Source of the DNA: an uncultured Solirubrobacterales bacterium
Lineage (GTDB): Bacteria; Actinomycetota; Thermoleophilia; Solirubrobacterales; Solirubrobacteraceae
NCBI GenBank assembly: GCA_963803475.1
Contig: CAWDMR010000009.1
Location: 3,697-67,696 of the forward strand
DNA length: 64,000 bases
Direction: 5' to 3'
The notes below the pieces were generated by a model. It saw nothing but the letters and a program-made list of their open reading frames with translations, did no database searches and was not told the DNA's origin. Each line of letters opens with the position of its first letter. Within the stretch, counting starts at the first letter, position 1. This document shows, one piece after another, positions 6,631-54,215 of this stretch. A program made the translations under genes and the position numbers.

Positions 6631-6744
6631 GCCTTGAAGTTCGACCACGTATGCGACGGACGAACTCCATCGCGGCGCTCGGCGGCGGAGATATCGGAGT
6701 CCGACCAGGTCCCACGTCGATTCCCGCCGGACCGGAGCTAAGGC
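6631..6744. repeat. Double inverted-repeat intergenic element
   Basis: Arms gaagttcgacc/ggacgaactcc and ggagtccgacc/ggaccggagct with starts 60 bp apart; outer gcctt/aaggc. Confidence 0.5.
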
Positions 6745-40122: not shown

Positions 40123-41539
40123 GTGTTGCGACGATTTGGGACCGTGGTGTTGGCGGTGGGCGCGATCGTCGGAATCAGTGCGTGTGCGGGGATGACGACG
40201 GGTGCGACAAACATCTCCGGGGGTTCGGCGAAGCTCCATGCGACCGCCGGCTGTGAGGCGGGTGAGACGTGCACCTGGTACTTCGAGTATTGGCAGGCGA
40301 ACTAGCCGCGATACCTGAGCAGCAGAACGGCGGTGCAGGGTCCGGTGAACGGAGCGACCGGGAATCAGAACCTCTCGGCAATGGTCACCGGCCTGAGTCA
40401 CGGCACGACGTACCGCTGGGTCTTCTGCGGCTCGCCCAATGGAGGCGCGAGCTACGCCTGCGTCGGCCCGCACGGCACGCCCGGCTCGCCGACCGCCGAC
40501 CCTCCTCCTGACTACGCGACGTTTACCACCCGCCCGCAGCGGACGCTGGCGGAGCGCTGGAACGGCAAGGCTGGCACATCCAAGCCACGCGTCACCCGCC
40601 CGGCACGGTCTCGCTCTCGGCCGTGTCGTGCGTGTCGAGCAAGTCCTGCATGGCGGTCAACAGCGGGACCTCCGAGCACTGGAACGGGACGGCGTGGACA
40701 GTCGAGCCCTCGCAGGGAGGAGAGGCGGTGTCCTGCACCGCCGACAACGCGTGCACCGCTGTCGGAAGCGCAGGCACGCTGGCGGCCAGGTGGGACGGCA
40801 CGAGCTGGACCAACCAGGCCGTTCCCACCCCGAGTGGGGCTACGGCCATCGCCCTGACGAGCGTCTCGTGCGCGTCCGCCAGCGCGTGCGTGGCAGTGGG
40901 AACCTACGACAGCAGCGCCGTCAACGTGGTGCGTTAGCGGAGGCGTGGGACGGCACGAGCTGGAAGATGCTGCCGACACCGCCGGCGCCCAGCGGCGAGT
41001 TCTACGTCGTGCTGACGGGGTCTCATGCACATCTCTGACTGCGTGCACCGCGGTCGGCGAGGCCTTCGGCGAGCTGGCCTCGGGCCAGACCTTGGCGGAG
41101 CGCTGGGACGGCACGTCCTGGGCGATCCAGCCCACCCCCGCAGGCGACGGAATCCAGAGCGATAATCGGCGCGTGTCGTGTACCTCGGACACCGCCTGTA
41201 CCGCAGCTGGTGCGGTCCGCTGTCACAGAAAGCGGCGGCGCCGCGACGCTGGCGGAGAGCTGGGACGGCACGTCCTGGACGATCCAGCCCACCCCCAACC
41301 CAAGCGGCACGAACAACAGCGGCCTGTCGGGTGTGTCGTGCACATCGACGAGTGTATGCACCGCCGTCGGCTCTTACTCGAACCCATCAGACGAGTCAGA
41401 CGCTTAACTCTGCGGCGGAGCGCTGGGATGGCACCAGCTGGACGATCCAGACGACGCCCGACAACGGCTTGGCGACAGCGTGTTCAATGGCGTCTCGTGC
41501 CCGACGGCATCGATGTGTACGGCTGTCGGGTACCGGTGA
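40123..41539 (+). CDS. Putative lipoprotein with W-[DN]-G-x-x-W / VSC...C-AVG repeats (frameshifted; in-frame TAG 40303-40305)
   Basis: Lipobox-like ISAC; about seven AERWDGTSW-type repeats. Confidence 0.78.
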
Positions 41540-43730: not shown

Positions 43731-43803
<73 letters not shown>

Positions 43804-43899
43804 TTCGAGATCGAAGTCCGGTACAAGGGTAATACACCCACGTGGGACGGGGCGGGAAGAAGGCGGCGCGGTTTCGACCGGGGCGGGGCCTGGCCGCGT

Positions 43900-44019
43900 G
43901 GCGTGCGAAACCCGCCCCATTGCGCGGCGGCGGCCTAGTGGGGCGGGTTATGCCTCGCCTGCGAGGCATAAGTCGCCCGGGAGGTGGCGGAAATCGCATC
44001 CGGGCGGGTTATTCACGCC
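43900..44019. repeat. Double inverted-repeat intergenic element
   Basis: aaacccgcccca-19nt-tggggcgggtta, central tgcctcgc/gcgaggca, taagtcgcccgg-19nt-ccgggcgggtta; outer ggcgtg/cacgcc. Confidence 0.75.
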
Positions 44020-44133
44020 CCACGAGGGCTGCCCGCCCCCAGACGGGCTGCCCGCCGGCCAAACCGGCCCCCCCGGTCTCCACTCCGTCACCGCTCCGAC
44101 CGCCGAACCGAGTCCGGACGAGCCAACCACGCG

Positions 44134-44829
44134 CTACCCCGGTGGAATGAACTCCGGCACGTCGAGCACCTCGCCGTCGGCTGCCGACTCGCGCTCGCGG
44201 CGATCGCGGACGGCCAGCTCGCGACGGTCCCCGGCCGGACGGGGCCCCAGGGCGCCTTCGATTCGGTCCACCTGGGCCAGCATGCGCGAGTGGATACTCT
44301 GCACGTCGCGCAACAGGCGCTCGGCATTGGCACGCAGGGAGTCGCCCATCTGACGCAGGTTGTCGACGATCTCGAGCCCCTCGGTGCGGACGTCGCTGGC
44401 CGCGGTGCGGGTGGCGCGCAGTAGCTCGCGAGCCCGCGCCTCGGCATCGGCAACCTCGCGCGCTGCCGTCTGCTTGGCCTCGGTGACCACGGAGTCGGCG
44501 TTCTCCTGCGCCCGCGCGACGATCGTCAATGCCTCGCTGGTGGCGTCGGACACGGCCTTCTCGGACTCGCCTTTGGCCGACTCCCGCACGCGGGTCGCCT
44601 CGTCGCTGGCCTCCTGCATGATCTCCGCCGCTTCCGCCTCGGCGGCGCGCACGCGGTTGTCGGCGGCGCGGTCGCCCTCGGCGATGCGCTCGCGGACTCG
44701 CTGCTCGGTCTGCTCGACCATCCGCTTGGCCGACTCCTCGGCGGCAGAGATGATCACGGCCACCTGGTCGGCGGCGGCCGCGGCGCTTCGGGTGCCGCGC
44801 CGGCCTGGCTGAGGGTCGTTTTCGGGCAC
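44134..44829 (-). CDS. Coiled-coil protein (DivIVA/ATP-synthase-b-like Ala/Glu repeats)
   Basis: EA..EA repeats; ends VPEFIPPG; TACCAT 6 nt before GTG. Confidence 0.75.
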   Translation of the reverse strand: MPENDPQPGRRGTRSAAAAADQVAVIISAAEESAKRMVEQTEQRVRERIAEGDRAADNRVRAAEAEAAEIMQEASDEATRVRESAKGESEKAVSDATSEALTIVARAQENADSVVTEAKQTAAREVADAEARARELLRATRTAASDVRTEGLEIVDNLRQMGDSLRANAERLLRDVQSIHSRMLAQVDRIEGALGPRPAGDRRELAVRDRRERESAADGEVLDVPEFIPPG

Positions 44830-51437: not shown

Positions 51438-51494
51438 GAGCCGCGCGACAGCCTCAATACCCTTGTGGTCATCCTCTCGGTGTTACCGAACCCC

Positions 51495-53297
51495 ATGTCG
51501 ACGACCGCCCACATCCGCAACTTCTCGATCATCGCCCACATCGACCACGGCAAGTCGACGTTGGCGGACCGGATCCTCGAGCTGACCCACACCGTCGATC
51601 CGCGGTCGATGCGCGCCCAGGTGCTGGATTCGATGGACCTCGAGCGTGAGCGTGGCATCACGATCAAGGCCCAGGCGGTCCGCGTCTTCTACGAGGCGGC
51701 CGACGGTCACACCTATCAGCTGCATCTGATCGATACGCCGGGCCACGTCGACTTCACCTACGAGGTGTCGCGGTCGCTGGCCGCCTGCGAGGGGGCGCTG
51801 CTGGTGGTCGACGCATCGCAGGGCGTCGAGGCGCAGACTGTGGCCAACACGTACCTGGCGATCGAGTCCGGGCTCGAGCTGATTCCCTGCCTGAACAAGG
51901 TCGACCTGCCCGGAGCCGAGCCTGAGCGGGTGGCCGAGGAGGTGGCCGAGCTGCTGGGCGAGCCGGCCGACAGCGTGCGCCGGATCAGCGCCAAGACCGG
52001 CGACGGCGTCACCGCCGTGCTCGACGAGCTGATCGCCCGGGTACCACCGCCGAGCGGAGATCCGCACGGCACTCCGCGAGCGCTGATCTTCGACTCGGAG
52101 TTCGACCCGTACCGCGGCGTGATCGCCTACATCCGGGTGGTCGATGGCACCTTCACCAAGGGTGAGGCGATCAGGGCGATGCAGGCGGGCACGGAGGCCG
52201 ACATCGACGATATTGGCTTCTTTACGCCGCAGATGACCTCCGCCGATGCGCTGCACGCGGGCGAGGTGGGGTTCCTGATCACCGGCATCAAGGACGTGAC
52301 GCGGCTGCGCGTAGGCGACACGCTGACGTCGCGTTCGAACCCGGCCCGCGAGCCCCTGCCGGGATACCGCGAGGTCAAGCCGATGGTGTTCTGCGGCCTG
52401 TTCCCGATCGACTCCGACGACTACCCCGATCTGCGCGATGCGCTCGAGAAGCTGACGCTCAACGACGCTGCCCTGGCCTGGGAACCCGAGACCTCCGACG
52501 CGCTCGGGTTCGGCTTCCGCTGCGGCTTCCTGGGTCTGCTGCACATGGACATCGTGCGTGAGCGCCTGGAGCGCGAGTACGACCTCGAGCTGCTGGCGAC
52601 GATGCCGAGCGTCGAGTACGAGGTCACGCTGACCGACGGCCTGGTGCTGCCTGTGCATTCGCCCAACGACATGCCCGATCCGGGTCGGGTGGCGGAGGTC
52701 CGTGAGCCCTACATCCGTGCCTCGATCCTGACCCCGAAGGAGTATGTCGGTCAGATCATGGAGCTCTGCCAGGAACGTCGCGGCGACCACGCCGGCATGC
52801 ACTACCTGTCGTCCGAGCGCGTGCAGCTGACCTACGACCTGCCCCTGGCCGAGATCGTGCTCGACTTCTTCGACCAGCTCAAGTCCCGCACCCGCGGGTA
52901 CGCGTCGCTGGACTACGAGGTGGTCGGGCTACGAGAGTCGGACCTGGTCAAGCTCGACATCCTGCTGGCTGGCGATCCGGTCGATGCGCTGTCGATGCTG
53001 GTGCATCGCTCCAAGGCCTACGAAGCCGGCCGGGCGCTGGCCGAGAAGCTGCGCCAGAAGATCCCCCGCCAGCAGTACGACGTGCCGATCCAGGCCGCCA
53101 TCGGCTCGCGGATCGTTGCTCGCGAGACAATCAAGGCCTACCGTAAGGACGTCACCGCCAAGTGCTACGGAGGCGACATCACCCGCAAGCGCAAGCTGTT
53201 GGAGCAGCAGCGGAAGGGAAAGCAGCGGATGAAGCAGGTCGGGCGGATCGAGGTGCCGCAGGAGGCGTTCCTGGCCGTGCTGGAGCTGGGGGAGTAG
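51495..53297 (+). CDS. lepA: Elongation factor 4
   Basis: [45 protein letters not shown]. Confidence 0.98.
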
Positions 53298-53462
53298 GGC
53301 TGGGGCTCGGGTGCGTGTTGGCCTCGGGGCTTGGGGGGCCGCCCGCGTTTGGCGGTTCTGGGGCCGGTGCGGGGGTGTTCTGCTGCGGCGGCGGGGGGTG
53401 CGGGGGAGTGGCTTGCGGGGTGAGGGCGGCGCGGCGACGGGTGGCTTGGGAGTAGGGCGAGG

Positions 53463-53574
53463 TGAATAACGTGACGCGGACCGCCCCGCGGGCCGCGAGT
53501 GTCACCTTTGCCATGCCCCACATGGTCAACGTGACCGAGACCCTCCAGCGTGGAGACGCGTGGCACGTTGTTCA
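53463..53574. repeat. Double inverted-repeat intergenic element
   Basis: aacgtgac...gtcacctt, central tgccatg/catggtca, aacgtgac...ggcacgtt (60-bp period); outer tgaataacgtg/cacgttgttca. Confidence 0.7.
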
Positions 53575-53580
53575 GGTCCG

Positions 53581-53709
53581 GGCGAGCCGAGGACGCGATC
53601 GGCGAGCCGAGGACGCGATCGGCGAGCCGAGGACGCGATCGGCGGGCCGAGGAGGCGACCGGCGAGCCGAGGACGCGATCGGCGGGCCGAGGACGCGACC
53701 GGCGAGCCC
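53581..53709. repeat. 20-bp tandem repeat, 6 copies plus a partial copy
   Basis: ggcgagccgaggacgcgatc x3 exact, then variants; no spacers. Confidence 0.95.
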
Positions 53710-53801: not shown

Positions 53802-54215
53802 TTACAGCCAGAACCCGGACCGCACGTGGGCGCGGCTGCGGCCGCAGCGTCGGCTGTGGGCGCCGAAGAACCACCAGCCGAGCGCCAGCCACAGCGCCCA
53901 CACGGCCAGGAAGCTGGTGACAACGAGCACCACCACCGCGATCAGCGCGATCGCCAGCGGGATCGCGAGCGCCAGCGCCACGGTGGGCTTGACCCATGGA
54001 GCGGCAGACGGCGGCCGGCGGCGGGTGACACGGTCGCTGGGCAGGTCCGCCACGAGCGCGTCGAGCTCCGCGTAGGTCCGAGCCGACAGGGCCGCCCCGA
54101 GGCGCTCGTCAAGCTCGTCGGGGAGGATGCGACCCTCGGTGGCAGCCTGACGCAGACGGTCGGCGATCCGCTCGCGGTCTGCGTCCGATGCTCTGAGGAT
54201 TCCGCGGTGTGCCAT
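53802..54215 (-). CDS. DUF1707 (SHOCT-like) domain membrane protein
   Basis: LRASDADRE..A..L..A..EGRI..DELDERL..A..ART..EL..LVADLP. Confidence 0.9.
   Translation of the reverse strand: MAHRGILRASDADRERIADRLRQAATEGRILPDELDERLGAALSARTYAELDALVADLPSDRVTRRRPPSAAPWVKPTVALALAIPLAIALIAVVVLVVTSFLAVWALWLALGWWFFGAHSRRCGRSRAHVRSGFWL

Follow-up and report, generated by a model that had tools for sequence, protein, structure and literature searches.

Dispersed four-arm palindromes in a Solirubrobacteraceae genome and their link to the starts of AbiEi-DUF559 genes

Three palindromic elements lie between the genes of the window, i.e., the whole 64-kb stretch of DNA analyzed here (G000:C9:3697-67696, where G000 is the Solirubrobacteraceae genome under study). 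With a modest leaning in favor of this reading, we regard them as dispersed copies of a four-site palindrome that occurs at the starts of AbiEi-DUF559 genes, and that is likely bound as double-stranded DNA by its own paralogue of the encoded protein and likely copied by it. The link between genes and repeats is very probable, and a spread of the repeats driven by the enzyme is slightly favored.

Anatomy and geometry of the repeat families

G000 is a 3.97-Mb assembly of 12 contigs (69% G+C, 86% complete), the relatives of which are Solirubrobacteraceae. Since the housekeeping genes gdh and tig are split across frames, the assembly probably contains indel errors. The elements of the window, designated E1, E2, and E3, are listed with their parts and neighbors in Table 1.

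Table 1. Positions in the window of the three elements, their parts and their neighboring genes
Feature	Positions	Strand	Basis
E1 copy lacking the left unit: center (palindrome) at 6635-6669, spacer, outer arm (arm 4) at 6696-6710	6635..6710	.	nhmmer E 2e-15
tRNA-Ala(GGC), left neighbor of E2	43731..43803	-	ARAGORN + Rfam
E2 element, focal, full four-arm copy	43901..44019	.	nhmmer 43901-44017, E 4e-20
E2 outer arm 1	43901..43918	.	sequence; kept in family consensus
E2 spacer 1, 21 nt; fixed length, variable sequence	43919..43939	.	
E2 central palindrome: arms 2 + 3 around short core	43940..43978	.	
E2 spacer 2	43979..44001	.	
E2 outer arm 4	44002..44019	.	sequence; kept in family consensus
Conserved gene without clear Pfam family, right neighbor of E2	44134..44829	-	
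lepA, left neighbor of E3	51465..53297	+	Pfam LepA_C
E3 element, full copy; central palindrome 53501-53535	53462..53576	.	nhmmer 53463-53574, E 2e-22
DUF1707 gene, right neighbor of E3	53802..54215	-	

A sequence-only reading of the window had given all three elements one layout, arm-spacer-arm, central palindrome, arm-spacer-arm. This layout holds for E2 (43900-44019) and E3 (53463-53574). The element placed at 6631-6744 is truncated and had been mis-parsed: its supposedly shorter first unit is the central palindrome (6635-6669), its right end lies near 6710, the stretch up to 6744 falls outside the family model, and the left unit is missing, so that this copy keeps only the central palindrome and the right unit, as a comparison with nine other copies of E1 shows. 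The distance of 60-61 bp between equivalent arms was borne out, including the period of 60 between 6636 and 6696. All three elements are predicted to fold stably as single strands, none of them matches Rfam at gathering score, and a terminal GTAG or CGTC tag is absent from their consensus ends. Other repeats of the window include a 20-bp tandem repeat of about six copies that begins right at the right end of E3 (53581-53700) and a 52-nt repeat of six copies at a spacing of about 157 bp (40542-41459), probably a repeat protein with frameshifts. A match to the Rfam group II intron domain V/VI (1292-1402, 44.8 bits) has a fragmented reading frame upstream.

None of the three elements is single-copy, iterated nhmmer having returned 13 (E1), 16 (E2), and 41 (E3) matches at E<0.01 in G000, of which 10, 12, and 37, respectively, are near-full copies after score cut-offs. 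The geometry scan described next brought out two further families with the 60-61-bp period, F4 with 20 matches and E3b with 12 matches, nine of them near-full. The geometry itself is commoner than in shuffled DNA, as had been anticipated: a genome-wide scan blind to sequence found 52 matches at period 61, where two local shuffles gave 24 and 22, and seven strong matches (at least 27 of 30) at periods 60-61 vs. none in either shuffle, next to eight strong matches at other periods. Period 60 alone is uninformative, coding DNA inflating all multiples of three. The elements were also said to have arms that are alike within an element and unrelated between elements; the arms of different families are, however, not entirely without likeness, for E1 and F4 are similar at their start and E3 and E3b have a common arm core.

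Within families, the arms and the center are conserved and the spacers keep their length (±1) and not their sequence. Of the 37 E3 copies, whose units measure 40-42 bp, 35 have a period of 60 or 61 and 36 have an identical central gap. Mean spacer identity amounts to 42-53% vs. 25-32% after shuffling. As 20 of the 72 E3 spacers have a neighbor at 75% identity or above vs. none among shuffled ones, the E3 copies descend from one another. Left and right spacers assort almost independently (E3, r=0.08, p=0.068), as in pairs of copies whose identity is 92% for one spacer and 25% for the other. Within single elements, the two spacers are neither direct nor inverted copies of each other (z from -1.8 to 0.2). 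No copy-specific covariation between arms or spacers was detected in 20 pairing tests (|z|≤2.2; F4 arm 1 is out of register in these), and 1 of 16 stem-extension tests reached z 2.8, for the outer pairing of E3. No target-site duplication was found, the best value over 121 offsets being z 2.7. By rough gene calls, 80 of 81 copies are intergenic. The copies are old, with a mean identity of 61-67% (maximum 76-91%), and hence bear no sign of a recent burst.

Other palindromes accompany these families. F5 consists of one palindrome, near-perfect and about 47 bp long, of which G000 has 43 copies; one copy (L002:1115-1161) stands ahead of the nuclease gene on contig C1; a palindrome similar to F5 accompanies the closest protein to that nuclease (L041). 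Another palindrome, F6, is carried as a passenger by a CTAG-ended, MITE-like family of about 260 bp and 11 copies (e.g., G000 C1:329465, C6:788774, and C11:12727), three of which hold a further nested insert.

The orthologous sites of congeners lack the elements, in species-level comparisons whose junctions cannot be aligned. At the E2 site, the gap from the stop codon to tRNA-Ala spans 330 bp in G000, whereas those of its three closest congeners measure 52, 53, and 38 bp, and among the 19 congeners examined out of 62 with a match, none has an element of a G000 family and several have other inserts. The E3 gap measures 504 bp in G000, and in all five congeners compared the neighbor ends within 39-120 bp. 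At the E1 site, one of five congeners is syntenic (320 vs. 478 bp) and is without the element. Multi-copy, lineage-specific, and missing from orthologous loci, the families thus agree with the earlier idea of several repeat subfamilies of one geometry. In 8 of the 19 congeners, the gap orthologous to that of E2 (window 43804-44133) contains a small gene with a palindrome ahead of it, reading into the start of tRNA-Ala (L213, L214, L217, L218, L220, L221, L224, and L225; 142 aa in L225, truncated in L221). This gene may encode a PD-(D/E)XK nuclease and have a LexA-type box.

Palindromes at the starts of AbiEi-DUF559 genes

G000 has three AbiEi_4-DUF559/MTES_1575 genes, on contigs C12, C1, and C2, and each of the three bears a copy of a repeat family at its 5′ end, namely E3, F5, and F6/F7. 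A nuclease of the DUF559 type had been named beforehand as a candidate partner, and no mobilizer had been seen within the window; both points hold, the partner gene lying outside it. The other candidate, an HUH/RAYT enzyme, finds no counterpart, as Y1_Tnp (PF01797) has no match in G000, which is 86% complete. The AbiEii toxin (DUF1814, PF08843) has none in G000 either. At the C12 gene, the E3 copy lies at the start, in frame and before the first helix, and at the C2 gene the F6/F7 palindrome supplies the in-frame ATG. Close to its start, the reading frame of the C12 gene is shifted, though split housekeeping genes occur in the same assembly as well. Orthologues of the C12 gene carry other arm sequences, so that a native element may have given way to E3 at this gene. 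No gene has been assigned to E1, F4, and E3b.

A six-frame profile search revealed three relics of the 3′ ends of nuclease genes in G000. At C2:669.5 kb, half an E2 element, broken in its central palindrome, lies directly against one of these relics, the final ~45 codons of the gene, between flanks that enclose a whole nuclease gene in eight loci of relatives. Because half an E2 element adjoins the remnant of a deleted gene where relatives keep the gene, E2 looks like an orphan family whose gene was deleted. Speaking against this, the half element has the opposite orientation to the elements in L036, a nuclease locus with an E2-like element, and L226. The relic at C11:110.8 kb sits where L009, L114, L119, and others have a nuclease gene. 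Near the third, at C6:688.7 kb, there is no element of the families, and none of the fetched loci matches its flanks.

Searches with DNA alone led to the same gene family. The single metagenome match to the E2 center (L226) contains the ATG of a 308-aa gene of the AbiEi-DUF559 family; a longer E2 center pattern had no match in metagenomes. The 17 sequencing-run matches listed have shares of 0.05-0.07, and none of the matches listed is RNA. Among 150 congeners, three E3-like centers occur, one preceding an AbiEi-DUF559 gene and two not, and a strict E2 pattern, insensitive in that it finds 3 of the 16 E2 copies of G000 itself, has no match. The tallies over 150 congeners include the unpublished genomes G046 and G075, on which no other claim rests.

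AbiEi-DUF559 genes are present in 37 of 41 sampled genomes, with 1-11 matches each. Loci were fetched for 170 of these matches (30 + 80 + 60), giving 167 distinct loci together with the three of G000 and 162 with enough flank. Of these 162 genes, 68 have a strong inverted repeat at the 5′ end, as compared with seven downstream, one inside, and none of 155 farther upstream. Its sequence differs from gene to gene, and the G000 family models match, over the 167 loci, only the three own loci and, weakly, L036, L038, and L095. The best four-arm matches upstream have a period of 60-62 in 11 of 13 cases, vs. four matches, none at 60-62, in control segments. All five gene-side elements of relatives that were tested recur elsewhere in their own genome. 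One recurs at four loci vs. none in four other genomes and another at seven vs. none; a third has 13, 6, and 2 matches in three genomes with kindred genes vs. none in two others. Separation is weak for a pattern with 7 matches vs. 0-2 elsewhere, and a pattern with 16 matches in its own genome also matches G016 nine times. The genes occupy shared loci, 103 of 156 having a common upstream neighbor and 107 of 154 a common downstream one. Short common motifs occur just upstream of the palindromes in L003, L086, L104, L110, L144, L155, L164, and others, and may be a promoter that the palindrome represses.

When 159 proteins were placed on a FastTree phylogeny, one subclade of 44 rows (SH 91), with the C12 gene among its members, gathered 15 of the 16 labelled rows; this subclade was chosen after the labels had been seen. 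The remaining labelled row is a long branch in the wrong frame. Labels were set manually for L001 and L178, and L155 was removed manually. A label-change test on this tree was not significant (14 vs. 15.5, 48 of 500 shuffles). Autocorrelation, which is free of labels, found the 60-62 period in 23 of 44 loci of the subclade vs. 8 of 113 outside it, and control periods in 4 and 0 of the 44. As kin within the subclade are not independent, this concentration counts for about one origin.

The encoded protein and its place among known systems

A structural model of an AbiEi-DUF559 protein computed from 126 sequences reached a pLDDT of 94, compared with 41 for a single-sequence model. Foldseek ranked AbiEi (6y8q, E 3e-6), I-Bth0305I (3r3p, 2e-4), and Rv2827c (1zel, 4e-4) at the top, with 3hrl and Vsr lower, and a profile search agrees with this ranking. 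As modelled, the protein joins antitoxin-type DNA-binding domains to a nuclease like those of Vsr and I-Bth0305I. The nuclease-site residues E203, D230, E241, D243, and H248 are conserved at 98-100% in 160 proteins. D230 and H248 align to alanines of the 3r3p chain, which presumably are the D196A and H213A mutations named in the available text on I-Bth0305I (PMC3239194). NCBIfam names only 5 of the 126 proteins, and weakly; in the sections available, DUF559 and MTES_1575 have been grouped with Vsr (PMC3424549, PMC3710099).

The likeness to AbiEi and Rv2827c (COG5340) extends, in the model, over the N-terminal two thirds of the protein, and inverted repeats lie over the gene start in both cases. 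According to the available part of the literature (PMC7319586), AbiEi binds a pair of 23-bp inverted repeats, bending the DNA, and Rv2827c binds four 23-bp repeats within 131 bp of the start, arranged as two pairs with gaps of 13 bp within and 4 bp between pairs; summed from these published gaps, the repeat period of Rv2827c is 63 bp. Unlike in these systems, no AbiEii toxin was found in G000, a nuclease domain is fused to the protein, and the operator is copied 10-40 times genome-wide. The catalytic domain is homologous to those of I-Bth0305I and other EDxHD enzymes and of Vsr, with conserved aspartate and histidine positions, and I-Bth0305I is described, in the text at hand, as a dimer with a footprint of about 60 bp that cuts a pseudo-palindrome (PMC3239194). 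In contrast to EDxHD homing endonucleases, the gene is free-standing at a shared locus, outside any intron or intein, and carries its intact site uninterrupted.

The system works like REPIN-RAYT but departs from it in enzyme, tag, bracketing, and hairpin covariation. Both comprise species-specific, palindromic intergenic families, each with a vertically kept, non-mobile enzyme gene, as far as the available accounts describe REPINs (PMC3116915, PMC5581495, PMC3733652), and both have length-constrained spacers and several families per genome (PMC3116915, available part). On the other hand, the enzyme here is an AbiEi-wHTH/Vsr-like nuclease and not HUH, the repeat lies 5′ and overlaps the gene start instead of bracketing the gene (of 162 loci, 68 have it upstream and 7 downstream), and the element has four arms at a period of 60-61 with no GTAG tag and no compensatory pairing. 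CGTC REPs, which in the same partial account have no dedicated transposase, likewise are palindromic repeats without a tyrosine transposase nearby (PMC3733652); the three families of the window differ from them in having no conserved CGTC end, and the available portion of that account does not mention DUF559 or Actinobacteria. Unlike MITEs, the elements have no target-site duplication. The literature covered, mostly main texts of open journals, holds no paper that ties DUF559/MTES_1575 or AbiEi fusions to dispersed repeats. The 5′-only position, the operator geometry, the 60-62 subclade, and the relics are additions of the present work.

Proposed mechanism, alternatives, and significance

At the gene, the element would be an autorepression operator, by analogy with AbiEi and Rv2827c, and binding and autorepression by the AbiEi-DUF559 protein are likely on that analogy. 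The winged helix of each subunit would read one arm of 10-14 bp and cover the adjoining spacer unread, which would leave spacer length fixed and spacer sequence free. A pair of subunits would cover about 60 bp, with cuts by their Vsr-like domains, most likely in the central palindrome, as the analogy with I-Bth0305I suggests; dimer formation and a central cut are plausible, the latter because of one relic breakpoint and the shuffling of half-units. Repair from another copy would then shuffle half-units and occasionally seed a new copy while the nuclease gene stays at its fixed locus, and deletion of the gene would leave an orphan family, as E2 appears to be. The seeding of new copies by repair is the least supported of these steps. 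The repair model offers no explanation for the route of a copy into an empty site, and we infer the mobility of the elements. In a broader claim, made tentatively and not quite favored, the repeats would represent a new kind of mobile DNA in which the operator of a repressor-nuclease is the replicating unit, each paralogue reading its own four-site array as double-stranded DNA, cutting it, and spreading it by repair without a transposase, with arm sequences and specificities turning over between species and the 60-bp geometry set by the footprint.

It is conceivable, if rather unlikely, that the elements, though bound by the protein, owe their passive dispersal to host recombination and persist because of a regulatory, decoy, or chromosome-organizing role, the nuclease having another job such as repair. 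Such a passive spread would accord with repression at inverted repeats by AbiEi-family proteins (PMC7319586, available part), with the grouping of DUF559 with the repair enzyme Vsr (PMC3424549, available part), with the vertical maintenance of the genes at fixed loci, and with the absence of target-site duplications. However, the copies show no promoter preference and no enrichment ahead of genes: convergent gene pairs enclose 20 of 81 copies (203 of 1583 in the background), and divergent pairs enclose 21 of 81 (448 of 1583). The sites also lack the conservation in congeners that a regulon would show, and the copies cluster across families, with 20 of 81 lying within 400 bp of a member of another family where 3.4 would be expected, all of which argues against passive spread. 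It seems distinctly improbable that the nuclease serves in defense or addiction and is restrained by its own repeats, the dispersed copies acting as sink or self mark and foreign DNA or site loss releasing the cut. At least three paralogues have been deleted while repeats persist, the genes occur one at a time among housekeeping genes rather than in islands, and the AbiEii toxin is missing from the gene content found in G000, although AbiEi domains derive from abortive-infection toxin-antitoxin systems and the 1-11 paralogues per genome with different sites would be typical of conflict systems.

Still less credible is the view closest to the sequence-only reading, in which an HUH or DDE transposase mobilizes REPIN- or MITE-like, hairpin-recognized units whose adjacency to the nuclease is secondary. 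The stable single-strand folds of all three elements and the 11-copy, MITE-like carrier of F6 point in that direction, but it is disfavored by the missing Y1_Tnp, by the lack of target-site duplications, by the recurrence of the position at the nuclease start codon in independent genomes, and by the lack of copy-specific pairing, given that REPINs have length-constrained spacers with compensatory changes (PMC3116915, available part). The suggestion of recognition by structure rather than by sequence was likewise not upheld: arm sequences are conserved within each family, each gene has a palindrome of its own, and covariation between paired positions of single copies was not found. An AbiEi-like operator layout without copy-specific pairing indicates that the sites are likely read as double-stranded DNA and not through structure alone, as in the preferred reading of dispersed operators of AbiEi-DUF559 genes.

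If true, this reading would give a role to a large, multi-paralogue actinobacterial family, AbiEi-DUF559, that has so far been uncharacterized. It would also provide a candidate enzyme for palindromic repeats without a RAYT, an open point in the available REP literature (PMC3733652), and would constitute a second, chemically unrelated way to the lifestyle of REPIN-RAYT. Finally, with a predicted target at the start of each gene itself, more than 160 protein-site pairs would be at hand for binding and cutting assays and for the recognition code of long-site nucleases.
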